DNA of 64,000 nucleotides from an uncultured Methanosarcinales archaeon (GCA_964344235.1 CAYFMJ010000001.1:348875-412874), one strand, 5' to 3'; counted from the stretch's first letter, positions 4,731 to 55,731 are shown. The notes: a model not told the origin generated them from the letters alone. Translations and numbers: made by a program.

Positions 4731-6005
4731 TTACCATTTTATTTTTCTGTTCCGGGAGAATTCTACAAGAGAGAGAAGAAAGATGCTGCCTTTTAAGAGA
4801 TAGTAAAATGCAAAGTAGGGGATAAGGGGAAGCCATCCAAACCGCATCATTCTTTCGTTTGCATTCTTATGGGCGCGGTAGAAAAAATAAAACCCAATGA
4901 CAAAGAGGAAGATAACGATAAAGAATGGTTTGAAATCAGTGAGGAGGAGTTCTAAAGGAGTGATTGTAGTATCGAGCGTTTGAATATACGGTGAGAGGTT
5001 GAATCGGACGATACTTAAATTTTTGAGGCCGTCTAAAGCAGGAAGGGCCAGGAAATATACTGCTGCTAAAAGTCCAGTGAGAGCAAGAATATACCCCGCA
5101 GTATTCTTGATCAATTGGATTAAACCAAAGTCGCCATATTTCTTGTTAGCGATCATTCTTCTATATTGATGTAAGCAGATCATGCCACCTAGATACCAGC
5201 GTCGTCGTTGTGAGTAGAATGGTTTGATCTTGTGTGGTGCTGTAGTGTACACGTAACCGTCGAAGCATTGTTTGATTTGGTAGTTGTGTTCCTGCACACG
5301 GTACGCAATTTCTTGATCTTCAGTGATGTTTTGTGGATCGAAACCACCGAGTTTTTTGATAATGGACGTTCTGTATAATGAAAAAGGCCCAGGAGCCACG
5401 TATAGTGAGTCTAAATGACTTGCTAGCCGTGCGATGAAAATGATGATAAGATATTCTAGCCATTGAACACGTTGGAGGATGTTTTTTGGGTTATCAACTT
5501 TCATTGCTGGGGTGATGATGGCAAGATTAGGGTTGTTTTCTTTCTCATACAGTGCCAGCATTTTACGGAGCGTAGAAGGTTCAACGAATGAATCAGCGTC
5601 GAGGCATGCAAAATATTCTCCCCGAGAGACTTTAAGCGCTTTGTTCATTGATGCTCCTTTTCCCATATTGGCGTGGGAGATAAGTCGGAAGTGTGGTTTA
5701 TTATGAATGAATGCTGTGACAACTTCTTTTGTTTGATCGGTTGATCCATCGTTAATGACAATCACGTCGAGTTTCTCTTTTGGATAGTCAATGTTGTTGA
5801 TTGATTGTAATGTTTTGAGAATTGTTTTTTCTTCATTTAATGCTGGGACAATAATAGAAACGATTGGAGTTTGTGAGAGTATGGTCGTTGATTGCTCCTG
5901 TTTAAATTCAGTTCGTTTATCAATGTATACTAACAGGAAAAATACAGAGAAATATAATGATAAAACGTATGCTACCCACAAAATAACGTTAATGATAATT
6001 CCCAC
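4731..6005 (-). CDS. Processive GT2 glycosyltransferase (PgaC/cellulose synthase-like)
   Basis: IVPALNEE, NDGSTD, LDADS, TED and QRRRW motifs; flanking TM helices. Confidence 0.85.
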   Translation of the reverse strand: MGIIINVILWVAYVLSLYFSVFFLLVYIDKRTEFKQEQSTTILSQTPIVSIIVPALNEEKTILKTLQSINNIDYPKEKLDVIVINDGSTDQTKEVVTAFIHNKPHFRLISHANMGKGASMNKALKVSRGEYFACLDADSFVEPSTLRKMLALYEKENNPNLAIITPAMKVDNPKNILQRVQWLEYLIIIFIARLASHLDSLYVAPGPFSLYRTSIIKKLGGFDPQNITEDQEIAYRVQEHNYQIKQCFDGYVYTTAPHKIKPFYSQRRRWYLGGMICLHQYRRMIANKKYGDFGLIQLIKNTAGYILALTGLLAAVYFLALPALDGLKNLSIVRFNLSPYIQTLDTTITPLELLLTDFKPFFIVIFLFVIGFYFFYRAHKNANERMMRFGWLPLIPYFAFYYLLKGSIFLLSLVEFSRNRKIKW

Positions 6006-6036
6006 AGTACACCCTCAAAACACTTTTTGAACATCT

Positions 6037-7368
6037 CTATTGCTCTTCTGTAAACTCCCAAACCTCTGATTGTTCGTGAGAATGTACTAATTTAAATCTT
6101 TCGTTTCTGAGCAGGAAAAGTAAGCCTTGGTCGGAAGACAGTGTTTGCTGGAATGAGTGGGGAATATAGAAGTGGGTGATTCCTTGACTTTCTAAGATTG
6201 GGAAGAGTTGCCTGATATATAGAGAATCAGTTATGTTTGAGGTTGTTGTGGCTGAAGTTCTATGTTTTTTGTGAGGAAGGGGGGTGGCGGTTCGTTGGGC
6301 AAAGAATTGCACGTAGTGTGCATGTTCGCCTACAGCAAAAATTACTGATTCTGAAGGTGTTTCTTCCTGAATCCATTGTAATGTTTCGATTTCTGACTGC
6401 GTTGGGCCATATTCTACGAGCCGATCACTATAACTTAGTGTTGAGAAGATGATGCCGAGTAATAAGAGGAAGAGGGTGAACTTTTTTAGTTGCTGGAGGG
6501 ACCAATTCCTGTTACTGAGCTGTGTTAAGGCAGTTGTTGCGAAAAGTGTTATAACGACCGTCAGAGGGAAGATTATGGCAGAACTTACAACGTATGCCAC
6601 TACAAACAGGACAAGGAGAATGTAGAGATAACGGAACTTCTTTTTCCGCCAGGCAGCTGTCGCTCCAATGATTGCTAGGATGAATGTGAAGAAACTGATC
6701 CCACTGAGACCTCCTAAATCTGAGATGAAGTCTGAGAGGAGGTGTTGCATATGGAATGGGCCAAGAATAAACTGTTGTTGTAGAAGAAAAATATTAATTA
6801 TAAGGAGGAGAGCGAGAGTTATGAGTACAGCAATGTGTGGTGTTTTAATTCTTTTTTTGTTCAATGAATGAATTATGATTATAGTCGCAACGGCGAGAGT
6901 TGTAAAGATGTCGAAGAACGTTGTTGCGGCAAGAGGAACGAGTGCTAGGAATTGGTATTTTTGTTTTTTCTCAAGAAGTAAGAGACCTAATAGAACGAGA
7001 GGTGTCACAAGAGCGTACGTTGTTATATTCGTGAAAGTATACATGAATGCAGGGGAGAGTGCTAGAAGAATGAGGAACCATGTAGTGAATTTTGGATCGA
7101 ATTTCCAATGTTTCGTTAATGCGAAGAATAATGTTAATGAAAGCAACCCGCTGATGAGGGGAATGATGTATAACATTGCTAATGGTACGGATTGTATGTT
7201 GCTTATGTTAAGCAATGAGAGGTAAAAGTAGCTTTCTCCAGCGGCGAGTGGAGCTTTGTTAAAAAATATGTTAAGGAGTAGTGGGAGAAGAAGGATTAAC
7301 AGGTACAGGAAGTACATCATCTTTTTGTGATGGCGGGGGAATGGAATTTGTAATGTTTCTGTTTTCAT
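6037..7368 (-). CDS. Multi-pass membrane protein, probable GT-C/STT3-like fold
   Basis: Many TM helices plus soluble C-terminal domain (LQWIQEETPSESVI); start placed at MKTETLQ, which overlaps the upstream stop (ATGA). Confidence 0.55.
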   Translation of the reverse strand: MKTETLQIPFPRHHKKMMYFLYLLILLLPLLLNIFFNKAPLAAGESYFYLSLLNISNIQSVPLAMLYIIPLISGLLSLTLFFALTKHWKFDPKFTTWFLILLALSPAFMYTFTNITTYALVTPLVLLGLLLLEKKQKYQFLALVPLAATTFFDIFTTLAVATIIIIHSLNKKRIKTPHIAVLITLALLLIINIFLLQQQFILGPFHMQHLLSDFISDLGGLSGISFFTFILAIIGATAAWRKKKFRYLYILLVLFVVAYVVSSAIIFPLTVVITLFATTALTQLSNRNWSLQQLKKFTLFLLLLGIIFSTLSYSDRLVEYGPTQSEIETLQWIQEETPSESVIFAVGEHAHYVQFFAQRTATPLPHKKHRTSATTTSNITDSLYIRQLFPILESQGITHFYIPHSFQQTLSSDQGLLFLLRNERFKLVHSHEQSEVWEFTEEQ

Positions 7369-8840
7369 TTTGCAGTCTCTAAGCCACATGTTGTGCGGTA
7401 TATTTTTGTCTGGTTACTGTATACTTGCTGGAAGCACTCTTCTGTTAGGAATGTAAAAGTTTCGTGCCCCGTTTTTTGTTGTGCGTGTGGTGTGAACACA
7501 AGATATTGGGAGCTGTATTCTTGTAGAACACCAATGGCACGTGTTTGTAACGAACTTCCAAAGACAGCATTCACGTCGATGAAGCGCTTCTCTACATCCT
7601 TAATAAGCCTGAATTGGTCATCAATAATGTTTTGTCTGTTGCTGTAATAGGTAATCAAGTGGCCTTCTTTAGTGAGAGCTAAGATACCAGTGTTTTTGGG
7701 AGCATGCTCGTTGAGCCATTGGAATGCTGCTATCTCTTCATCCTGTGGCGTTTCCTGTTGTAATGATGCCAAGATAGCTGGTGCGATTGTTGTTATGAGA
7801 AGAACGAAAATTACCAGTGCTGGGATATATTTTTTGAATGTATAAATTTTTGTTTGTTCAATGTATGCGATAATGTCATCGTAAAATGATGCGAAAAATG
7901 CAGCGAGAATTATACCGAAGAAGCTGAGGGAAAGTGTAAACTCGATAAGTCGGAACCATGTGAGTATTGTTGTTGAGATAGCGAAACTCAAGAGCAGGAA
8001 TAGTTTTTTGTTTCGTGTGAAAAATAATGACCTATAGGCTACAACAACTCCTGCAAGAAATGGAATAGCACTAATGAGGATAAGAGTTTCTGCAATCGTT
8101 GCTTGTGGGAAATATTGTTGAACGATTTGAGAAGGGATGTTTTGCCAAATAAATGAAATCCCCTGTTCTATGAAGACGTTTTTGAAGAAAAGGAATTGTG
8201 CCCAGATGAAGAAGAATACTGAGAAGAGAATCAGCTCAACTTCTGCTTTACTGACACGCTTTCGTTCAATAGCTGCTAAGATAAGGTAGATGCCAAAACC
8301 CATGATGAGGAGAAATGTAGCGGAAGAGGTGAGTGAGAGAGCAAGGAATGCTATAACATACGAAAAGAGCGCTTTTTCTTTTGTCAGGTTGAGGAAAAGG
8401 TAGATTGTGTAGAAGACTAGTGGTAGGAATAACGTTTGAGGTGTAAAGGAGTTGGTGTTGTACAGAATGGGGAGGAAGCCGGCGATCGATGCTGAGAAGA
8501 GAGGACCATGCTTTTTAGTACTAATTTGGGCACTAAGGTAATAGATGATAATTGTGAGTGAGGCTATGAAAATATTTGGCAGGATTTTGGCGACTAATGC
8601 TAATGGTAGGAATAAATCGAAGAATGCTGCGACGTAATGGAATAGTGGAAGGAAGAACAGTTCTCTCCCTCCGTAGGAGAGTGAGTCTTGGTATAAAGGT
8701 AAGCCATGTTCGGTGATATGTTCCACCTGCCGCATGTGATAATATGAGTCGTAGGTTAGATTTGGAACGGAGAACGCGAGGATAAGTCTTGCAGTTAATG
8801 TTACTAGAAAAATAATAATTAACCAGTGTTTGCTTTTCAT
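7365..8840 (-). CDS. Multi-pass membrane protein, probable GT-C/STT3-like glycosyltransferase
   Basis: YDSYYHMR after TM1, C-terminal FQWLNEHAPKNTGIL...GHLITY; probable paralog of the downstream gene. Confidence 0.6.
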   Translation of the reverse strand: MKSKHWLIIIFLVTLTARLILAFSVPNLTYDSYYHMRQVEHITEHGLPLYQDSLSYGGRELFFLPLFHYVAAFFDLFLPLALVAKILPNIFIASLTIIIYYLSAQISTKKHGPLFSASIAGFLPILYNTNSFTPQTLFLPLVFYTIYLFLNLTKEKALFSYVIAFLALSLTSSATFLLIMGFGIYLILAAIERKRVSKAEVELILFSVFFFIWAQFLFFKNVFIEQGISFIWQNIPSQIVQQYFPQATIAETLILISAIPFLAGVVVAYRSLFFTRNKKLFLLLSFAISTTILTWFRLIEFTLSLSFFGIILAAFFASFYDDIIAYIEQTKIYTFKKYIPALVIFVLLITTIAPAILASLQQETPQDEEIAAFQWLNEHAPKNTGILALTKEGHLITYYSNRQNIIDDQFRLIKDVEKRFIDVNAVFGSSLQTRAIGVLQEYSSQYLVFTPHAQQKTGHETFTFLTEECFQQVYSNQTKIYRTTCGLETAK

Positions 8841-8923
8841 GTGTTTGGAATGTATGTTTTGTTTTATAAAAGTGTGGGTGTGAGTGGCTAAATCTTTAAA
8901 TGTTGTAGTGTTGTGGAGGAAAT

Positions 8924-26301: not shown

Positions 26302-28428
26302 ATGGCTGATTTTGGTGATGGATATTATATGCCGATGGACCGTGGACATGCACATGATCATGGACATCATGGTTTTCCAGGGGTTTCAGGGAAAGCAACA
26401 AGTGATGTAGGGATTTCTATCGGTGATTTAGGAACAAGTATGGGTTTAGGTCCGGTGCCGAATGTGCAAACTGTTAAATCGCGTCTTCATCCCGGAGCGA
26501 AGAAGTTAGAGTTCGTATTTTTTGGTCGAGGAAAAGGTTCTGCTCAGGGACATACGCCAGGACAGTATGGGTTTAAGCAACGACAAGCATTAGTAGAGAT
26601 TGGAAGATCAAATAAAGTTGATTTTACAACGCACTCTGCTGTTGGCATTATGGGTTTAGCAGGGATGGATCAGCAAGGGAATTTCTCAAAAGCAAGTAAG
26701 CAGGATTCTCTATTGGAGTTAAAGCGAGCAGTTGAATTCGCTGCAGATGTGGGACAGGGAGGGCCCGTTGTTGTTCATACTGGGGAGTTTGACAGGCCAA
26801 TTGTTGACGCTGAGTGGAACCAACAGGAAGGCGATCCGTACAAAGGGAAGTTTACTCGGTATGCTGATGAGGAAGGAAGAACGGAGTATAGGGTTGTTGA
26901 TAGAAGAACTGGAAGACTGGTACAGTCAGCTCAGAAGAATAGAAAAGTTTCCCGGCCAGTATGGAATGTTGCTACAGAGGGAGAAGAGTATGTCGACTTT
27001 GATGGGGTGACAAAAAAGGGTGAGAAAGGAAAAAAAGTGTATTTAGATTATGAGGGAAACCGCGTACAGCCAGAGTTACGAGTTCCGAAGTTTAACAAAG
27101 ATGATCAAAAATTCGAAGTGGTGCAGCTAGGGTGGGAAGATCTTGTTGAGGAAGCAAAAGAAATGACTACCCGTGCTAAAGAGGTGTGGAAAGATTGGAA
27201 AGCTGGTAGAATTAGTAATAAAGAGTTTGAAAAATCGTATTGGGCTCGATTTAGGGATGCGAAGAGTGTTAAAGATGTTAACGTCCGGGCTGAGGAAGCG
27301 TATATTATCTCAACATTAGAAACCAATGCTGCTAGGGACAGGGGTTGGGCGTTGTATTATGGGGGGAATTTTGATGATTATATCAAAAAAATGAAGAAGT
27401 TTAAGAAAGCGCTGGCGTTTTATGAGCAATTGGAAGAAGCAACTGATGAAGAAGAGAAGTGGCAATTGAAGCGCGAAATTGGCGAGTTGCGTTTACCGAG
27501 TGGGTTGGTGCCGCCTGATTCTAAATTTCCCTCTGAAATTTTGAGAGAGCAGATTAAAGAAGTTGATCGGCAAATGAAATATTCGCGTGAATCTTCAGCA
27601 GCACAATGGGCGCAATCAGAAGAAGCGGTGGAACAGATCAGGAATATTGAGAGTGCGGAGACGTATGCAATTAAAGAAGCGTATGATGCGTATGCACAAT
27701 CAGCAATTAGTGCAATGAGACAGAGTGATGCGTTAGAGAAGAAAGGTAAGTTGAAGAAGCCGATTGCAGTTGCTCTTGAAAATTTATTCCCAGAAGCATA
27801 TGGTTCACACCCTGATGAGTTAAAAAGTTTAGTGCTTGGGAGTCGGGAGAGGATGGTTGAGTTGCTGAAACAGCAAGGAATGGCTGAAGAAGCGGCTAAG
27901 AAGAAAGCCACAGCGCACATTACTGCAACATTTGATACCGGGCATCTTAACATGTGGCGGAAGTATTGGCGAGGGGATCCAAATAAAAGTATCAAAGAAA
28001 ATGATAAAGCATTTGATAAATGGATGTTAGATAAAGTTGGAGAGCTAGCAAAGGATAAGATTATTGGCCACGTACATATTGATGATAATTATGGGTATCA
28101 TGATGATCATCTCGCTCCGGGTGAAGGGAATACGCCGATTAAAGAGATGGTGAAAGTGTTAAAAAAGAACGGGTACAAAGGAGAATTAATTGTGGAGCCC
28201 GGTGCAGATTATTATACAGATACGGGAAATGGCTTTGCGTCACTTGCGAAGACATGGAAACATTTTGATCTACCAGTCTATGGACGAGGAGGGTTGTCTG
28301 GACAAGGAGCAACGTGGGGGAATGTGCAGTATGGTTTCTTTGGACATAATCAACCTGCATATTTCGTGTTTGGAGCATATAGCCCGTCGGAAGAATGGAC
28401 GTTGTGGTCAGGAGTGCCGTTGGAGTAA
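26302..28428 (+). CDS. Xylose-isomerase-like/AP endonuclease 2 TIM-barrel metalloenzyme with large insertion
   Basis: VVHTGE, ALENL, TFDTGH, HVHIDD...HL, IVE metal motifs. Confidence 0.75.
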   Translation: MADFGDGYYMPMDRGHAHDHGHHGFPGVSGKATSDVGISIGDLGTSMGLGPVPNVQTVKSRLHPGAKKLEFVFFGRGKGSAQGHTPGQYGFKQRQALVEIGRSNKVDFTTHSAVGIMGLAGMDQQGNFSKASKQDSLLELKRAVEFAADVGQGGPVVVHTGEFDRPIVDAEWNQQEGDPYKGKFTRYADEEGRTEYRVVDRRTGRLVQSAQKNRKVSRPVWNVATEGEEYVDFDGVTKKGEKGKKVYLDYEGNRVQPELRVPKFNKDDQKFEVVQLGWEDLVEEAKEMTTRAKEVWKDWKAGRISNKEFEKSYWARFRDAKSVKDVNVRAEEAYIISTLETNAARDRGWALYYGGNFDDYIKKMKKFKKALAFYEQLEEATDEEEKWQLKREIGELRLPSGLVPPDSKFPSEILREQIKEVDRQMKYSRESSAAQWAQSEEAVEQIRNIESAETYAIKEAYDAYAQSAISAMRQSDALEKKGKLKKPIAVALENLFPEAYGSHPDELKSLVLGSRERMVELLKQQGMAEEAAKKKATAHITATFDTGHLNMWRKYWRGDPNKSIKENDKAFDKWMLDKVGELAKDKIIGHVHIDDNYGYHDDHLAPGEGNTPIKEMVKVLKKNGYKGELIVEPGADYYTDTGNGFASLAKTWKHFDLPVYGRGGLSGQGATWGNVQYGFFGHNQPAYFVFGAYSPSEEWTLWSGVPLE

Positions 28429-28469
28429 TTGTTGCTGTATTTTTTCGACGACAAAATTGAGCGGAAGGT

Positions 28470-28638
28470 GTTATGCCCTGGGGACTTTACGTCCCCACGA
28501 GGAGCGTAGCGACGAAGAGTTTTTGAACTACCGTGCATTGACACTGGCGCCGATTAACACTTACAGTTTTTAGTTTTAGTATTTCAAAGAAGGGGGAGTT
28601 CCGTTAGTTTTAGTTACACATTAAAGGGGGGACAATTT
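28470..28638. repeat. Cassette 1 left arm
   Basis: GTTATGCCC, hairpin TGGGGAC-TTTAC-GTCCCCA, GGAGC-GTA-GCGAC, then blocks TTTTTGAACTACC, ACTGGCGCC, GATTAACACT, GGGGGAGTTCC, AGGGGGGACAATTT. Confidence 0.9.
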
Positions 28639-28640
28639 AG

Positions 28641-29402
28641 TTACTTGAAAGGTTTACTTTGTTTCCAGAACCATTCAAAATAATTTCTAAAAGAATCAGC
28701 AACTTGTTGACTTGTTATTTCAAAGGCAAAGGGCATTTCACCCTGAGGGATTGCAATGAGAACCACATCTTTGTAGATCATTACCCAAGAGGGAGATTCA
28801 ATATTGAGGGGCATTCTTCTGGCTTCGCAATATTTGTAACTATTTCTGTTCTTTAAGTTTTCATTAGTTACATCAGGATGATAAAGCATTCTGCATTTGA
28901 TTTTTTCTTTTGCCAAAATCTGATGGTGCTTTTTCCAATACGCATGATGAAAGCCCGGTTGTTGCGGAGGCAACCCGTACAAAACAACCTCATCTCCCTG
29001 TTTCAATTTTTGATAGCGGTTTTCGTAAGCAGTCATTAATCCTCTAAATCCCTCATACATATTAGCCTCACTTTTTTTGGCTAACTTTTGTTTAAGGATT
29101 AACTGGGGAATCATCTCTTGGATTTTCGCTTTATTTTGTTGAATCTCTTTTTCTCTAGTTTCAACATAATCCAAGAGTGTATTTGGCGGTGCTGCTTGGT
29201 AATACTTAGTTTTTTCTTTGGTCACATAGGAAACAAGCCCTTTCTTGATTAGTTTTTCAAGAATCCTATAGATGATTGATCTATTTACTCCAGATTTTTC
29301 AAGAATAGGGCCGATTGTTGACGAACCAAGCTCTAGCAAAGCCAAGTAAGTTCTTGTTTCACCATCAGTTAATCCTGCTTCTTGAAGGGCTGAAATGTCC
29401 AT
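28641..29402 (-). CDS. TrmB-family transcriptional regulator
   Basis: GLTDGETRTYLALL...SIIYRILEKLIKKGLV wHTH plus C-terminal effector domain. Confidence 0.85.
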   Translation of the reverse strand: MDISALQEAGLTDGETRTYLALLELGSSTIGPILEKSGVNRSIIYRILEKLIKKGLVSYVTKEKTKYYQAAPPNTLLDYVETREKEIQQNKAKIQEMIPQLILKQKLAKKSEANMYEGFRGLMTAYENRYQKLKQGDEVVLYGLPPQQPGFHHAYWKKHHQILAKEKIKCRMLYHPDVTNENLKNRNSYKYCEARRMPLNIESPSWVMIYKDVVLIAIPQGEMPFAFEITSQQVADSFRNYFEWFWKQSKPFK

Positions 29403-29521
29403 GCTTTGTTTATGATTGGTTGTTTTATTTAAATCTTTCTAATTAGCATACTAGTGGTGGTATGATAAAATTATTAAAGAAAGTAGTTGCTACTGTTAAA
29501 TAAATAACTTAGGAATTAAAA

Positions 29522-29971
29522 ATGACAGAAGAAAATAATGGGCTTGACGAGAGATTACTAACACAAGTACAGGCAATTAGCAGATTAGTAATTCCAGGTG
29601 TACAAACTGAATTTTGCAGGGGGGTTCCAAAGGAAGGCAGTACTAATGAATTTAGTCCAAGCACTAACATTCTTATTGAAAACTGTCTGGGTAGAACTGT
29701 TTTTGCATCATATATCCACACTCCGTATGGTAAGAATCAATTTAGGATGTGGTTAGACAATCGTCCAAAAATGTTGGTACCCGCTAGAGATCATTACGAT
29801 CGTGGAGGCAGTTCAAGAGAAGGCAGCCACTGGTTTTTTGAAGCTACTGGACTAACCGAACCAGTACAATCAATAAGAGATCTGTTGACGGATGGTTGGG
29901 AGAAAAAAGATGAATACAGCCATAGGGCAACTGCTATTCTTTACGCAAAAGGCGGGTTTTCGGATGAATAA
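29522..29971 (+). CDS. Hypothetical protein (cassette 1 cargo)
   Basis: 149-aa ORF with AGGA SD. Confidence 0.6.
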   Translation: MTEENNGLDERLLTQVQAISRLVIPGVQTEFCRGVPKEGSTNEFSPSTNILIENCLGRTVFASYIHTPYGKNQFRMWLDNRPKMLVPARDHYDRGGSSREGSHWFFEATGLTEPVQSIRDLLTDGWEKKDEYSHRATAILYAKGGFSDE

Positions 29972-29998
29972 TCAAGATGAAACTAGGAGCTAAATAAA

Positions 29999-30541
29999 AT
30001 GGCAAAAATTGAAAGCATTGAAAGAATACTTGTTGTTGAGGATACTGAACAACATATTCAGGCAGCTAGAGAACAACTTGGTGAGTATGAACTTACAATG
30101 GTGGGAGATTTCGAAAGATTCCTCGACGCAGTGAAAGGTACTTGTTTTGACGCGCCGAATAATAGAATGAAGCGTAATTATAACTTTCCTGAAGATCCAA
30201 AATTTGATGCTGTACTTAGCGATATGAATTTTCCTATGAATGTAAAAGACTTGTACAGTGGTTACAATTCCCCTGGTGTTTTAGGATATGCAGTAGGGAT
30301 GATCTGTTCACAAGCATCAATTCCATTAGTAGGAATTGTGTCTGCAACAAACCACCATGAAGGATCTGTTGCAGGAAGTCTAATGTACTTGAAAGCAACA
30401 AGACACGCTGATAGAATTTTTCAAGTAGGAGATACACGAATAATGTATTTTGATGATGACTCTTTTGGCACAAGGGATCAACCTAAGAGATGGGATAAAG
30501 CATTAGAATGTTTAAATGCAGGAACCAGAAATATTGATTAG
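29999..30541 (+). CDS. Receiver (REC)-like hypothetical protein (cassette 1 cargo)
   Basis: RILVVED and DAVLSDMNFP resemble receiver motifs. Confidence 0.55.
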   Translation: MAKIESIERILVVEDTEQHIQAAREQLGEYELTMVGDFERFLDAVKGTCFDAPNNRMKRNYNFPEDPKFDAVLSDMNFPMNVKDLYSGYNSPGVLGYAVGMICSQASIPLVGIVSATNHHEGSVAGSLMYLKATRHADRIFQVGDTRIMYFDDDSFGTRDQPKRWDKALECLNAGTRNID

Positions 30542-30697
30542 AAATTGTCCCCCCTCTTTTTTTTGTTTTTAGGAACTCCCCCGTTAAAGTTTTAGTGTTA
30601 ATCATAGTTTTAGTTCTTAGAAAGGCGCCAGTTAAGATTGTTTAATTTAGCGTTAGCGTAGTATCCAAAATAGGTAGTTCAAAAATTGGGCATATAC
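30542..30697. repeat. Cassette 1 right arm
   Basis: AAATTGTCCCCCCT, GGAACTCCCCC, AGTGTTAATC, GGCGCCAGT, GGTAGTTCAAAAA are exact reverse complements of the left-arm blocks, in mirrored order; then TT-GGGCATATAC. Confidence 0.9.
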
Positions 30698-30700
30698 GAT

Positions 30701-30819
30701 GTTATGTGCCCCCGACTTCACGTCGGGGTGCGTAACGACCGAAGGGAGTGGAGCAAGTATTTGAGTTGCGTCATAGAAAGGGGCTTGGCATAGTTTTGGT
30801 TTTTAGAGGGGCTTAAGTT
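30701..30819. repeat. Cassette 2 left arm
   Basis: GTTATGTGC, hairpin CCCCGAC-TTCAC-GTCGGGG, ACGACC-GAA-GGGAGT, blocks TATTTGAGTTGC, GGGGCTTGGC, AGAGGGGCTTAAGTT. Confidence 0.9.
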
Positions 30820-31155
30820 TTACTTTTTGAAAATGTTTACTAAAGAATCCTGAATCTCTTTGATTTTGTTTTCTTTCAAAGTGCCAATTTTTGAAGAAAT
30901 GATTGAAACATCGGCAGTGAAAAGCTTGTTTGGTCTTACAAGACTTGATACTGTCAATTTTCCAGTTTGAAAATTTTCTGTTTCAAGAGGAACTGCATAT
31001 TCATCGCTACGAGCAGAAGCAGTTGTTATCTGTGCAAGAATTAAATCGTCACCTGTGAGATTTGCCACCACTACTGCTGGTCGTTTCCGTGATGAACTTA
31101 GATCAGAGAAAGGAAAAAGAAGAACAACGACATCTCCTCTTACAAGTGTTTCCAT
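30820..31155 (-). CDS. mazF: PemK/MazF-family toxin
   Basis: RGDVVVLLFPFSDLSSSRKRPAVVV, LAQIT, RPNKLFT. Confidence 0.9.
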   Translation of the reverse strand: METLVRGDVVVLLFPFSDLSSSRKRPAVVVANLTGDDLILAQITTASARSDEYAVPLETENFQTGKLTVSSLVRPNKLFTADVSIISSKIGTLKENKIKEIQDSLVNIFKK

Positions 31156-31388
31156 GCTTCATCCTCCTCTTTAGTAAGCCAATCTTTTGCTAAAGATTTT
31201 TCACTGGCTAAAGCTGGAAACATTTTTTCATTGAATTGTTTTAACGGTCGTAGTTCTACTTTATTATCAAAGGCTAAAATTGCTACTTTTGTTCCCTCTT
31301 TGAATCCCTCAAGTTTTCTAATGTTTTTTGGGATAGCAATTTGACCTTTCTCTGTTACAGTTGCAGTTCTCATTTCGATTAATGGCAT
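31140..31388 (-). CDS. mazE: AbrB/MazE-family antitoxin
   Basis: TVTEKGQIAIPKNIR...EGTKV AbrB fold; overlaps toxin start; AGGTGA SD. Confidence 0.85.
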   Translation of the reverse strand: MPLIEMRTATVTEKGQIAIPKNIRKLEGFKEGTKVAILAFDNKVELRPLKQFNEKMFPALASEKSLAKDWLTKEEDEAWKHL

Positions 31389-31550
31389 TTTGATCACCTA
31401 CTTAGTAATTCTTACAAGTAGGATAAGTAAGAAATATATAAATTTTTCTGTATTTATGTTGTTACTAAATGATGAATAAATCAAGGAAAGATTTATAAAT
31501 GATTAGCCGTTTCTAAGACTATAATCATTAAAATCAAGAGGTCAATAAAA

Positions 31551-31853
31551 ATGTCAGAAAATAAATTAGTATTTGCTCGTGCATATTGGATGAATAGTCC
31601 ATTTGAAGAAGGACAAGCAGGATTCTTTGTAGGAGATCCAAGTAATCCATCTAAAGGATCATATGAAGGTAACAATAATTTAAGGTTTGCTGTTGCTAAA
31701 GTTGCTGAAAGAAGTTCTGAATTATCTACAACTGTTGATACAGAATTTGAAGGTCTAGCAAGAGATGGCAAAATGACTTTATTGTTGCAACCAATTGAGC
31801 AAGATACTGCTAAATACAAAAGTGTTGATGAATTAGCACGCATGTATCTTTAA
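31551..31853 (+). CDS. Hypothetical protein (cassette 2 cargo), AT-rich
   Basis: 100-aa ORF with GAGGT SD. Confidence 0.6.
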   Translation: MSENKLVFARAYWMNSPFEEGQAGFFVGDPSNPSKGSYEGNNNLRFAVAKVAERSSELSTTVDTEFEGLARDGKMTLLLQPIEQDTAKYKSVDELARMYL

Positions 31854-31870
31854 AATTATTTTTTCTTTTT

Positions 31871-32012
31871 AACTTAAGCCCCTCTTTTTCTTTTTACATT
31901 TTAGTTTTTAACATAGAGCCAAGCCCCATCAATAATAGAATTTCTGCATTCAGTTTATAGTCAGTAAACAGAAGCAGAGTAAACATCAAGCAACTCAAAT
32001 ATTGCACATAAC
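31871..32012. repeat. Cassette 2 right arm
   Basis: AACTTAAGCCCCTCT, GCCAAGCCCC, GCAACTCAAATA are exact reverse complements of the left arm; then TT-GCACATAAC. Confidence 0.9.
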
Positions 32013-32015
32013 GAT

Positions 32016-32097
32016 GTTATGTTGTGGGAGGTTCATCCTCCCAGCCGAGCGTTAGCGAGGAAGTTTAGAAATCAGGAACAAGCTTTACCCCCGCCAT
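32016..32097. repeat. Cassette 3 left arm
   Basis: GTTATGTTG, hairpin TGGGAGG-TTCAT-CCTCCCA, CCGAGC-GTTA-GCGAGG, blocks TTTAGAAATCAGGAA, TTACCCCCGCCAT. Confidence 0.85.
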
Positions 32098-32175
32098 TGT
32101 AGAATTTCACTGCCATACTCATCTTTTACTATTTTTTAGTAATATTTTTAAAGAAAGAGGTTTCTCATACTATTT

Positions 32176-32694
32176 ATGCAACAATTACTAACATACAGAG
32201 AATTTCCATTTGATCATTCATTATTTTTGGATAAAGGTATTAATGCAGGAGATTTGCATGTTACTCTTTATGATGAAATGGGTTGTACTCAAGATGGTGA
32301 CCAAAAGTTAAGTGAAGTAAATAGAAGAGTTCATAATGCTGCTGTAAGAAGTTTAGTTGGTAAATTTGCTGGTGATTTAGGACAAAGAGTTTCTTTTGGT
32401 GTTTCTAGATTTTTAAAAAAAAGTAAACGTGCTAGTCCTGATTATTCATTAAGTGAAGTTGCAGATGTTCTTGTTGGAGCAGGAGCGTATGAATCAAGAG
32501 AAGCAGCATTAGAACATTTACCTGAATTTTTAGGAACCTCTTTAAGGACTGATGGAAAACGAAAATATGCTAACTCAATGTGGACGGGAGTACAAACTAG
32601 TTTAGATATTGAAGTAAAAGATGAGTGGCATTGGTTTGGAAGAATAGATTCTGATAGTGGTGAACAGAAGGTATATTTACATAAGCAAAAATAA
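32176..32694 (+). CDS. Hypothetical protein (cassette 3 cargo), AT-rich
   Basis: 172-aa ORF. Confidence 0.6.
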   Translation: MQQLLTYREFPFDHSLFLDKGINAGDLHVTLYDEMGCTQDGDQKLSEVNRRVHNAAVRSLVGKFAGDLGQRVSFGVSRFLKKSKRASPDYSLSEVADVLVGAGAYESREAALEHLPEFLGTSLRTDGKRKYANSMWTGVQTSLDIEVKDEWHWFGRIDSDSGEQKVYLHKQK

Positions 32695-32698
32695 TTTT

Positions 32699-32755
32699 AT
32701 GGTGGGGGTTATTCAAGTTCTACGTCCTAATTCCTGATCTCTAAATTCAACATAC
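32699..32755. repeat. Cassette 3 right arm
   Basis: ATGGTGGGGGTTA and TTCCTGATCTCTAAA are near-exact reverse complements of the left arm; then TT-CAACATAC. Confidence 0.8.
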
Positions 32756-32935
32756 GGACTACTTAAGTGCACTTTGGGCTTAAGTAGTGAAATTCTTTGA
32801 ATTCAAAGCCTCTACTCAATCCCATAACGCAAAAAACTGTTACTACTTTGCATGGAAATGTCTCACTACCCACTCGACAACCACGGGTAGAGTATATAAA
32901 CGAGTTTCTTCACTAAGAATGTCGAGGTGATAGAA

Positions 32936-33061
32936 ATGAAAATGAAATTATTTCGGCGCGGTAAGTTGGTTGGTTTAGTGACTCCTAGTTTTTATATGGG
33001 GGAAGTGGAAAAAGAACGATTGATTTGGGATGATATTGATTTACCGTATCTTGAGGCGTGA
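32936..33061 (+). CDS. Small protein, 41 aa (MKMKLFRRGKLVGLVTPSFYMGEVEKERLIWDDIDLPYLEA)
   Basis: GAGGTGA SD and TATATAAA box upstream; below ORF-track size cutoff. Confidence 0.45.
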   Translation: MKMKLFRRGKLVGLVTPSFYMGEVEKERLIWDDIDLPYLEA

Positions 33062-36894: not shown

Positions 36895-37013
36895 AGCCCC
36901 GGGCGAGAGTTGAACTCGCGACCTCCTGATATCTTACCATGCTTGTGCTCTATTGAAAACATAGCAGATAGATGGCTACAAGTCAGGTGCTATAGCCACT
37001 AAGCCACCGGGGC
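36895..37013 (-). tRNA. tRNA-Thr(TGT) with canonical 46-nt intron at 37/38 (36931-36976)
   Basis: GCCCCGG/CCGGGGC acceptor, CCTGA-CTTGTA|A-TCAGG; BHB with CTTG/TAAG helix and CCAT/ATGG. Confidence 0.92.
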
Positions 37014-53448: not shown

Positions 53449-54195
53449 ATGGCAAATATTCGAGCAGTTAAACAGAAAGGGAGAAAACTTCCGAATGTCT
53501 TTAGTAAGAAACAATTGGTTGATCTCTTTCTTACAATCCGGGAAACAGAAATCTTTGTCGCTGCATTACTGGCGTTGTTCTGTGGTTTTCGCATTAGTGA
53601 AATATGCAAGCTAAGAAAAGATGACGTTGATTTGGATTCAGAGAGGATTAAAGTTGTACAGGGAAAGGGACATAAAGATCGCTATGTAATGGTGCCATCA
53701 AAACTGGTTCCATTTTTGAAACAATGGTTCCGCGTTCACCCAGATACTCCCTATGTCATCCCAGCACCGTACAAGGGACATTATAATGTTGGTTCGTTCC
53801 AAGCAAAATTTAGGAAATACCTTAAAGAAGCAGGTTTGTCCATGAAAGTTGGTCAGTCATCAACTGGGCTGCCTATTTATGCCTACAAATTTCATACATT
53901 ACGTCATACATATGCAACATTATTGTTAGAGAGAGGTGTTGATTTACATTATATCCAACGTGCACTCGGTCATTCTGACCTTCATACAACCCAAATTTAC
54001 GCGTATATTGGACAGAAAGATCTCCACAATAAGATTAATGCAGCGTTTGGTTCTGGACGTTCAAAACAGCGTCAAGCGCACAATACAACGGATCCAATTC
54101 AGTTGTTACAACTTAAATTAGCTGAGGGGGATATTGGCAAGAAAGAATACTTAGATAAACTGGACTTATTACAGCAAAGTTCAAGTTTGGCCTAA
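53449..54195 (+). CDS. Tyrosine recombinase, catalytic domain only, with C-terminal SHOCT-like helices
   Basis: GFRISE (R), GKGHK (K), HTLRH, LGH, TTQIY; tail DPIQLLQLKLAEGDIGKKEY. Confidence 0.9.
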   Translation: MANIRAVKQKGRKLPNVFSKKQLVDLFLTIRETEIFVAALLALFCGFRISEICKLRKDDVDLDSERIKVVQGKGHKDRYVMVPSKLVPFLKQWFRVHPDTPYVIPAPYKGHYNVGSFQAKFRKYLKEAGLSMKVGQSSTGLPIYAYKFHTLRHTYATLLLERGVDLHYIQRALGHSDLHTTQIYAYIGQKDLHNKINAAFGSGRSKQRQAHNTTDPIQLLQLKLAEGDIGKKEYLDKLDLLQQSSSLA

Positions 54196-55218: not shown

Positions 55219-55731
55219 TGTCGCCCACACTCGCTTAAAATCTTCCAGGACTCTCTGCCCTGAATAATTAAGATAAATATCTGTCGTTTGGATACTTGAA
55301 TGCCCTAAAATTCCCTGTAATGCACGGAGATTCCCTCCTCGATGTAAATACGTGACTGCGAATGTATGCCGTAGCACATGAGGCGTTACTTTCTTCCTAA
55401 TTCCTGCCCTTTCAGCAACTCGTTTCACGATTTGCTGTGCCCAACGAGATGTCATTTTTATTCTATCCCTACGGTGGAAATATGATTGAAGATACTTCCT
55501 TGCACAATTACTCATTGGGATCACGCGTCGTTTGTTTCCTTTTCCCCATGTGGTAATACAATCTCTCTGCCAACTAATTTGGTCAACAGAAAGAGTAGTT
55601 AATTCACTCACTCTCATCCCTGTTTCCAGAAGGACATTGATAACTAACTGTTCGCAAAAGGTTTTACATGCCCTTCGCAAAAGCACTATTTCATTTTCTT
55701 CCAATGGTTCTCGTTTGTATGTAAAAGCCAT
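55204..55731 (-). CDS. Minimal tyrosine recombinase (175 aa, catalytic domain only)
   Basis: TGMRVSE, GKGNK, HVLRH, LGH, TTDIY. Confidence 0.9.
   Translation of the reverse strand: MAFTYKREPLEENEIVLLRRACKTFCEQLVINVLLETGMRVSELTTLSVDQISWQRDCITTWGKGNKRRVIPMSNCARKYLQSYFHRRDRIKMTSRWAQQIVKRVAERAGIRKKVTPHVLRHTFAVTYLHRGGNLRALQGILGHSSIQTTDIYLNYSGQRVLEDFKRVWATSESV

Follow-up and report, generated by a model that had tools for sequence, protein, structure and literature searches.

Integrons, the textbook gene-capture device of bacteria, combine a tyrosine recombinase gene with a one-strand array of small cassettes and a distinct primary site by the integrase gene. Their cassette site, attC, is a contiguous imperfect hairpin (R''-L''...L'-R') of about 57 to 141 nucleotides (nt) lying 3' of the cargo, with its 3' end as the crossover point, and recombination between attC and attI, like the integration of CTX phage, is a single-strand exchange resolved by replication. 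The CTX phage genome is single-stranded and folds to make its site, which is a precedent for an Xer enzyme acting on a folded single strand. In the pdif modules of Acinetobacter plasmids, complete XerC/XerD sites in alternating orientation are served by the host XerCD. Archaeal integrons have been described with canonical attC sites and IntI (Ghaly et al. 2022; PMC9668308), and in the archaeal XerA/dif system the dif site of Pyrococcus abyssi is ATTGGATATAA-TCGGCC-TTATATCTAAA, with two 11-nt arms around a 6-nt spacer (11-6-11; PMC2958812). In this study, a tandem array of three gene cassettes at positions 28470 to 32755 was analyzed within a 64,000-nt stretch of DNA (the window) from an uncultured Methanosarcinales archaeon (GCA_964344235.1 CAYFMJ010000001.1:348875-412874).

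The initial annotation had proposed a cassette system that is neither a canonical integron attC array nor an insertion sequence, and the geometry of the cassette arms and the absence of a transposase agreed with this. The array probably belongs to an integron-like, family-wide cassette platform in which recombinases of a dedicated XerA-like clade act in trans, with the array in the window as a satellite that lacks an integrase. A literature search found no published description of such private-arm, Xer-linked cassette arrays. The genome of the window (G000) is archaeal, with 1.19 Mb in 37 contigs and 96% completeness; other G numbers denote genomes of the same archaeal family, and L numbers denote the loci or contigs examined.

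As in integrons, a tyrosine recombinase gene was found beside one-strand arrays of small cassettes, with a distinct primary site by the integrase. The structure of the cassette site was conserved while its sequence was private, families of sites were common to different cargo, and within a cassette the left-end core GTT... and the right-end inverse core ...AAC were complementary. Toxin-antitoxin cassettes, duplicate cassettes and integrase-less satellite arrays were likewise common to both systems. In contrast, the recombinase scored below the IntI family threshold and lacked the IntI insert, and the two halves of the site wrapped the cargo rather than forming one hairpin behind it. GTT and AAC lay at the open end of the stem instead of its inner end, with GTT 5' and AAC 3' on both strands, the reverse of attC, and the array was upstream of and co-oriented with the integrase gene. 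Whereas integron cassettes are mostly promoterless, co-oriented and served by a common promoter, the cargo of 45 cassettes comprised 39 open reading frames (ORFs) read along the array strand and 32 read against it. Judged by its sequence, the system appears to work like an integron, but two defining features are absent: the IntI insert and a contiguous attC at whose end the crossover falls.

Among the other relatives, elements that integrate at dif also stack in tandem at one site, but the units described here are small gene cassettes with private arms rather than phages or islands. Elements at chromosomal dif rely on the one dimer-resolution system of the host and on its unique dif site; G000 contains at least two recombinase-linked arrays in addition to the array in the window. 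The pdif modules resemble the cassettes in being small, often encoding toxin-antitoxin pairs and occurring in varied combinations bounded by Xer-type sites (cf. PMC11705084), but they differ in lacking private interrupted arms, a conserved hairpin module and a dedicated recombinase encoded next to them.

Private arms and a shared structured junction

To compare the arms, exact reverse-complement matches linking the 200 nt at one end of each cassette with the 200 nt at the other were chained. The chained matches (≥8 nt) between a cassette's own two arms amounted to 57, 46 and 22 nt for cassettes 1 to 3, compared with 0 to 12 nt between arms of different cassettes. Among 2,000 randomly drawn pairs of 200-nt segments, chains averaged 4.6 nt and did not exceed 27 nt. 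The mirrored private blocks reported in the initial annotation were therefore confirmed, with exact blocks in cassettes 1 and 2 and one mismatch per block in cassette 3. The phasing of a canonical attC, in which the right arm of one cassette would pair with the left arm of the next, was also tried and was ruled out by its scores of 0 to 12 nt.

All three cassettes were annotated on the plus strand. Cassette 1 (28470 to 30697; 2,228 nt) begins with a left-end module (28470 to 28518) composed of one strand of the end stem, P1 (GTTATGCCC, 28470 to 28478), hairpin 1 (28479 to 28497, loop TTTAC) and hairpin 2 (28498 to 28518, with a GC-GTA-GC apex). Its left arm (28520 to 28638) contains private blocks at 28520 to 28532, 28543 to 28551, 28552 to 28561, 28592 to 28602 and 28625 to 28638, with linkers of the TAGTTTT type. 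The right arm (30542 to 30697) holds the mirrored blocks (to 30685), the TTAGCGTTAGCG motif and a dif-like half-site ending ATTGGGCATATAC, with the other P1 strand at 30688 to 30697. The exact blocks measured 13, 9, 10, 11 and 14 nt, with a further 7 nt at the termini. The cargo consists of a TrmB-family helix-turn-helix regulator of 253 amino acids on the minus strand (28641 to 29402; PF01978, E = 4e-17) and two plus-strand genes for proteins of 149 (29522 to 29971) and 180 (29999 to 30541) amino acids, neither of which matched a family.

A GAT spacer (30698 to 30700) separates cassettes 1 and 2, and GAT was found at most junctions in all genomes examined. Cassette 2 (30701 to 32012; 1,312 nt) has P1 strands at 30701 to 30709 and 32004 to 32012, hairpin 1 at 30710 to 30728 and hairpin 2 at 30729 to 30757. 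Its exact blocks of 12, 10 and 15 nt pair 30758 to 30769 with 31990 to 32001, 30780 to 30789 with 31918 to 31927 and 30805 to 30819 with 31871 to 31885, and its 9-nt termini, GTTATGTGC and GCACATAAC, also match exactly. The cargo is a MazF/PemK-type toxin of 111 amino acids (30820 to 31155; PF02452) and a MazE/AbrB-type antitoxin of 85 amino acids (31140 to 31397; PF04014), both on the minus strand, followed by a plus-strand gene for a 100-amino-acid protein with no family match (31551 to 31853). After a second GAT (32013 to 32015), cassette 3 (32016 to 32755; 740 nt) has P1 strands at 32016 to 32024 and 32748 to 32755 (one base missing), hairpin 1 at 32025 to 32043, hairpin 2 at 32044 to 32064 and a single ORF (32176 to 32694) for a 172-amino-acid protein without a family. 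Its near-perfect blocks pair 32063 to 32078 with 32731 to 32746 and 32087 to 32097 with 32699 to 32709. As had been reported, inner blocks adjoin the cargo, with block ends at 28638, 30542 and 30819 next to the trmB end (28641), a stop codon (30541) and the mazF end (30820), respectively. The orphan cargo proteins had no matches among defense-system and NCBIfam profiles.

The pairing of the two ends extended across the family. Seven genomes provided a sample of 47 cassettes, of which 45 were non-redundant, with lengths of 78 to 3,827 nt (median, 1,025 nt) and one to four ORFs each. Median exact chained matches were 32 nt when both arms came from one cassette and 8 nt when they came from different cassettes, and 33 of the 47 own pairs exceeded 25 nt, the 99th percentile of the other-cassette pairs. 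All five variable positions of the 9-nt ends were complementary in 33/45 own pairs, compared with 2/45 pairs across a junction and 5% at random; these positions comprised 22 different 5-mers, and the W of GTTAWG covaried with the W of CWTAAC. The 12 nt beside the right half-site matched the left arm at a median of 12/12 positions (7/12 at random), with the match beginning 40 to 58 nt into the cassette. Compensated changes were also observed between homologous arms (TTTTTG../..CAAAAA versus GTTTTG../..CAAAAC, and G6/C6 versus G5/C5). The earlier claim that the ends and arms of each cassette pair is thus supported both by statistics over the 45 cassettes and by compensatory changes between homologues.

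The linkers between blocks, which had been described as non-complementary, are not mirrored. They contain strand-polar motifs that lie in direct rather than inverted orientation and are present in both arms: TAGTTTT was found 26 times along the array strand with no copy on the opposite one, and TTAGCG in a ratio of 23:1. The minimal form of a cassette was represented by two cargo-less copies of 78 nt in G027 (L084 = G027:C11, plus strand, 2612 to 2689 and 695 to 772). This empty cassette is predicted to fold as a four-way junction made up of the end stem, the two hairpins and the arm stem (-14.7 kcal/mol, z = -5.6), and cargo would therefore sit in the loop of the last stem.

The initial annotation had held that arms are complementary only within their own cassette. 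This was true of the private blocks, but all three left arms share a conserved hairpin module. The shared structured junction had been overlooked, as had its dif-like core, the terminal site and the occurrence of the same arm pair around unrelated cargo. The junction consensus was block1'-(A)ATT-NNN'-CWTAAC-GAT-GTTAWG-NNN-hairpin 1-hairpin 2-(A)AGT-block1. The left ends of cassettes 1 to 3 all consist of GTTATG-NNN, a 7-base-pair hairpin with a TTYAY loop and a second small hairpin (GCGT..CGA..GAAG). The motif of this second hairpin occurred three times in the window against 0.05 expected by chance, and the pattern CATAAC-NNN-GTTATG alone was not more frequent in the window than chance.

A covariance model was built from 13 aligned junctions of 11 genomes, in which all seven pairs of hairpin 1 covaried. 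In total, 99.2% of the hairpin 1 cells were paired, with 243 double changes (90 distinct sequences), compared with 58.7% after shuffling, and 8 G.U cells were counted against 5 non-standard ones. Hairpin 2 was constant in shape, ((..((...))..)), with tandem G.A positions and a G-N-A triloop in 14/30 cases; G-N-A triloops form very stable DNA mini-hairpins. When the junction region was folded alone, only hairpins 1 and 2 formed, and no contiguous attC-like hairpin was obtained.

Scanning for further loci of this architecture with the covariance model gave matches in 65/114 genomes and 41/58 genera of the same archaeal family, and in a phylum-wide sample 12/16 genomes of the family matched, compared with 1/135 from other families. 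The exact pattern of the commonest junction variant was matched by 62 stretches of metagenome contigs. The matches always formed head-to-tail, same-strand arrays, with 12 junctions in G010, 10 in G018, 9 in G027 and 7 in both G050 and G044. In line with the suggestion that the arms do not belong to a described element, Rfam gave no match at the locus, either at gathering thresholds (whole window) or at E = 1 (28300 to 33000); a single tRNA was the only match in the window.

Array fragments were also found at contig ends in G000 (C17:8388-8525, C9:260-349, C26:1275-1339 and C15:1-210), and the right arm of the C17 fragment shares the inner blocks of cassette 1. Because arrays appear to break the assembly, G000 would hold more cassettes than are visible.

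The array-linked recombinase and the dif-like terminal site

In G010 and G050, a recombinase gene in the same orientation lies 1 to 2 kb downstream of the end of the array, and nre comes after it. The same array-recombinase-nre arrangement was found on contig 3 of G000, and a second copy lies at the start of its contig 15, where the terminal site is cut by the contig end. Altogether, 15 genomes contained a junction and a recombinase gene (at least 45% identity) on the same strand, 1 to 6 kb apart and with the array upstream. The array-linked recombinases scored 236, 219.4 and 210.3 bits against NF040815 (XerA; cut-off, 220) and 178 to 217 bits against TIGR02249 (IntI; cut-off, 265), the latter in two stretches that skipped model positions of about 183 to 234. 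Their best PDB matches were 4a8e and 5hxy, the XerA structures of Pyrococcus and Thermoplasma, and IntI4 (2a3v) aligned in two stretches only. The alignments indicate that the array-linked recombinase is without the IntI-specific insert.

A maximum-likelihood tree included 14 of the 15 array-adjacent recombinases (that of G099 is cut by a contig end) together with the contig-15 copy of G000. These formed one clade of 15 with support of 100/99, sister to the pair with the highest XerA scores (252 to 263 bits), one of which came from an array-less genome; other XerA-like paralogues fell outside the clade. A dedicated XerA-like clade beside such arrays in 15 genomes, including two loci of G000, is what the earlier proposal of mobilization in trans would lead one to expect. 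With archaeal XerA/dif the system has in common its best family and structure matches, at scores around the XerA cut-off, and the half-site ATTNNNCWTAA, which resembles the Pyrococcus arm ATTGGATATAA (PMC2958812). It differs in that the clade is separate from the likely housekeeping XerA, is present in two copies in G000 and was not found in some near-complete array-less genomes.

Between the last cassette and the recombinase gene, a terminal site of the form ATTNNNCWTAA-CTCTNN-TTATGNNN was identified, with a right arm (T/A)TATG-NNN-A.. and the same 11-6-11 layout as dif. Its right arm in G050 is identical to the Pyrococcus arm; the G004 site is a 10/11 palindrome, and that of G099 is also near-palindromic. 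Internal junctions have the same left arm as the terminal site but a 5-nt spacer (CGATG) in place of the 6-nt CTCTNN, and the 5-nt spacer also sets them apart from archaeal dif.

In the window, a putative terminal, attI-like site follows the last cassette end (32756 to 32773, plus strand); its right arm TTAAGTGCACT (32763 to 32773) is homologous to the dif-like site of the relatives. Next to it, 116 nt (32785 to 32900, plus strand) are 80% identical to G000:C3:19848-19722, which lies just upstream of the recombinase gene on contig 3. Since no recombinase gene follows this copy of the integrase-upstream region, the locus appears to be a satellite array, comparable to an integrase-less cluster of attC sites. 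At the other end, a degenerate right-end-like half-site, ATTGAGCGGAA plus GGT (28456 to 28469, plus strand), marks the left boundary just past the stop of a conserved housekeeping gene for a 708-amino-acid protein; its sequence is similar to ATTNNNCWTAA-C-GAT, with one base fewer and two mismatches.

The gene nre was considered as a marker of the platform and rejected: although it follows the integrase gene in four genomes, it is conserved in single copy and also occurs where no integrase gene lies beside it, and was therefore classed as a neighbor rather than a component. In three genomes with no junctions, or with weak ones elsewhere, nre was present with no recombinase gene beside it.

The integrase-proximal cassette of L089 (G000:C3:17000-32000; minus strand, about 5900 to 8900) is 3.2 kb long and carries genes for a TrmB-type regulator, a methyltransferase-like protein and a membrane protein. 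It has a degenerate right end (ATTGCACTTAG), and the junction that precedes this cassette forms a perfect palindrome across itself.

Cassette mobility and candidate mechanism

Cassettes 1 and 2 were both found in other contexts, in keeping with the earlier view of them as mobile units. Homologues of cassette 2, including both arms and mazEF, occurred in an integrase-linked array of G004 (C24; 85% identity) and on a metagenome contig (L126; 89%), with the 100-amino-acid gene replaced and with no copy of cassette 1 or 3 found alongside. The arm pair of cassette 1 recurred in G057 (88% identity), around an unrelated 2-kb cargo, and on metagenome contig L123 (89 to 91%), where the TrmB gene was the only common cargo (47% protein identity) and both neighboring cassettes differed. 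Similarly, G044 and G010 had three cassettes with arms 78 to 94% identical and different cargo, and G010 contained a duplicate cassette (93% identical). The arms were better conserved than the cargo and appear to behave as a functional site, much like the attC families of chromosomal integrons. In G050 and G076, which belong to the same genus, the recombinase genes share 72% nucleotide identity, yet the adjacent cassettes are unrelated. Cassette content thus varies between related genomes, and on these comparative grounds the cassettes appear to be independent mobile units. The 708-amino-acid gene upstream of the array was kept in 11 other genera, with downstream synteny not kept and no junction downstream of the orthologues.

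The 66-nt left-end module of the integrase-proximal cassette was 95% identical between G004 (L090, 7363 to 7428) and G007 (L091, reverse complement, 6464 to 6529), with the remainder unrelated. The comparison of cassette 2 with its G004 homologue gave the converse pattern. The sequences suggest a second exchange point after hairpin 2.

Under the platform proposed here, a cassette would consist of cargo (one to four genes on either strand) and one long imperfect palindromic site that is split at its center when integrated. The right end would be a dif-like half-site, ATT-NNN'-CWTAA-C, and the left end would be G-TTAWG-NNN plus the two hairpins, with the private blocks further in. The crossover would fall inside ...TAAC-GAT-GTTA..., between ...TAAC and GAT-GTTA..., because the variable positions on either side stay with their own cassette. 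This lies between CWTAAC and GTTAWG, at the center of the palindrome that a circular cassette would form, and fits the earlier suggestion of an inside-out site, as compared with attC.

The dif-like terminal site beside the integrase gene would be the point of entry for new cassettes in primary arrays. Exchange of the single array strand after TAAC would account for the arrangement seen, because it leaves the cassette's GAT on the left and the TCT.. spacer of the site on the right. Insertion at the terminal site would proceed by single-strand exchange and be resolved by replication; a classical two-strand exchange between a cassette site and the terminal site is unlikely because their spacers differ in sequence and length. 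For excision, the private arms would zip the ends of one cassette into a four-way junction formed by P1, the two hairpins and the arm stem, and the zipped arms would juxtapose two junctions so that exactly one cassette is excised, which would explain why the arms of neighbors must differ. As the initial annotation had inferred, each cassette may fold as a giant stem or pass through a circular intermediate.

A folded single strand would be the likely substrate, as suggested by positions that vary freely and yet remain complementary to the opposite end of their own cassette. Recognition of a duplex site by a protein would not call for such end-to-end pairing. The strand polarity of the arm motifs and the G-N-A triloops and tandem G.A positions of hairpin 2 are also consistent with a single-stranded substrate. 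The single-strand version of the platform is close to evenly balanced between being right and wrong. More tentatively, the integron principle may have arisen in small-genome archaea as a separate, or ancestral, invention, with a XerA-derived enzyme, folded single-stranded DNA, an arm-zipped four-way junction as substrate, an 'attC' that encloses the cargo, a crossover at the center of the palindrome and private arms that secure excision of one cassette.

On the platform reading, a whole archaeal family would use integron logic (recombinase, primary site and structured, cassette-private sites); over half of its sampled genomes have junction matches. If confirmed, the integron principle would not be tied to IntI, and the system would be a natural intermediate between dif recombination and cassette capture. 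It would also explain part of the turnover of accessory genes in ultra-small archaea, including toxin-antitoxin pairs, regulators and many orphan genes, and would provide biochemistry with a compact 78-nt substrate and an enzyme of 270 to 300 amino acids.

The best surviving alternative, although an unlikely one, is a platform that acts on duplex DNA only, by two-strand exchange of a XerA-like enzyme at a palindromic core, as at dif, cer, psi and pdif and in elements stacking at dif. The arms would then be accessory, perhaps as binding sites for architectural proteins, as an extruded cruciform or as a topological filter, in place of a single-strand fold. The recombinase is indeed XerA-like, the core and the terminal site resemble dif half-sites, the conserved polar linker motifs could be protein-binding sites, and the same spacer at all internal junctions means that no special mechanism is needed. 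However, a duplex-only platform gives no reason for the compensated complementarity of the varying ends or for private arms of 100 to 170 nt, and a classical exchange between the terminal site and a junction would leave mismatches, as their spacers differ in sequence and length.

Several observations weigh against the integron-like platform or its single-strand version. Because the junction spacers are identical, junction-by-junction excision from duplex DNA is equally possible, and the 5-nt gap between the TAA and TTA arms of internal junctions departs from the 6 nt of dif. About a quarter of the cassettes had imperfectly paired ends, and the count of G.T versus A.C in hairpin 1 did not favor either strand as the one that folds. 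No integrase gene was found within 20 kb of the array in the window. Across genomes, 45 had both recombinase and junction, 20 the recombinase only, 20 the junction only and 29 neither; the resulting odds ratio of 3.3 is moderate and is uncorrected for phylogeny or fragmented assemblies. The circular junctions and empty sites anticipated in the initial annotation were not seen, nor was any excision event or population polymorphism, and exact searches of metagenome and genome collections with the right end of cassette 1 and the left end of cassette 2 gave no matches. The genome sample included no congeneric of G000, and thus none close enough to reveal an empty site at this locus. Among public reads, one run contained 5% of the sampled words and gave two short contigs on cassette 2, too sparse for circles, empty sites or expression.

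It is very improbable that the arms act at the RNA level, in a plus-strand transcript, as a processing stem (of the archaeal rRNA type, or for bulge-helix-bulge circularization) or as a structure that insulates or terminates, with the conserved junction as an RNA element. The T-rich linker motifs are strand-specific and contain stop codons, and hairpin 1 tolerates eight G.U pairs, as such a role would allow. Against this, the cargo faces both ways (39 and 32 ORFs), with trmB and mazEF antisense to the array strand; Rfam gave no match even at E = 1; and the boundaries are those of units that move between genomes, beside a recombinase gene and a dif-like site. More improbable still are side-by-side insertions of non-autonomous transposons (miniature inverted-repeat transposable elements or IS200/IS605 passengers) with GAT as a target duplication or site and with movement by a transposase specific for the subterminal hairpin: the position of this hairpin, about 9 nt from just one end as single-strand transposons have it, GAT on both sides of cassette 2 and terminal 9-nt inverted repeats would fit, but no Y1 transposase was found in the genome and the cassettes contain no transposase, the elements occur only in same-strand, head-to-tail arrays beside a tyrosine recombinase gene rather than dispersed, the terminal repeats differ between cassettes, and GAT is constant at most junctions in every genome and is therefore part of the site rather than a duplication.

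Neighboring features of the window

G000 contains 11 tyrosine recombinase genes, none of which lies beside the array in the window or reaches the integron-integrase threshold. Two are located about 21 to 23 kb downstream of the array, at about 53527 to 54003 (plus strand) and 55264 to 55704 (minus strand). They are about 30% identical to the array-linked clade, fell in the outgroup of the tree and probably belong to another integrated element.

A promoter-like element at 32864 to 32932 consists of two ACTSGACA-type half-sites followed by GGGTAGAGTATATAAAC. It is 98.5% identical to G000:C8:1907-1975 and occurs at two further places on contig 1, and a similar motif was found about 30 to 60 nt upstream of the start codon of the array-linked recombinase in most genera examined. 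The element may be a shared operator plus TATA box. A scan with bacterial promoter and terminator models, which do not apply to an archaeon, gave a signal at the level of shuffled sequence.

The GC skew was positive nearly throughout the window, and the cumulative skew climbed steadily to about 13 with no inflection at the array, which is therefore not located at a skew switch. The tRNA detected by Rfam is 119 nt long (36895 to 37013, minus strand; 56.6 bits) and was missed by ARAGORN, presumably through an archaeal intron.

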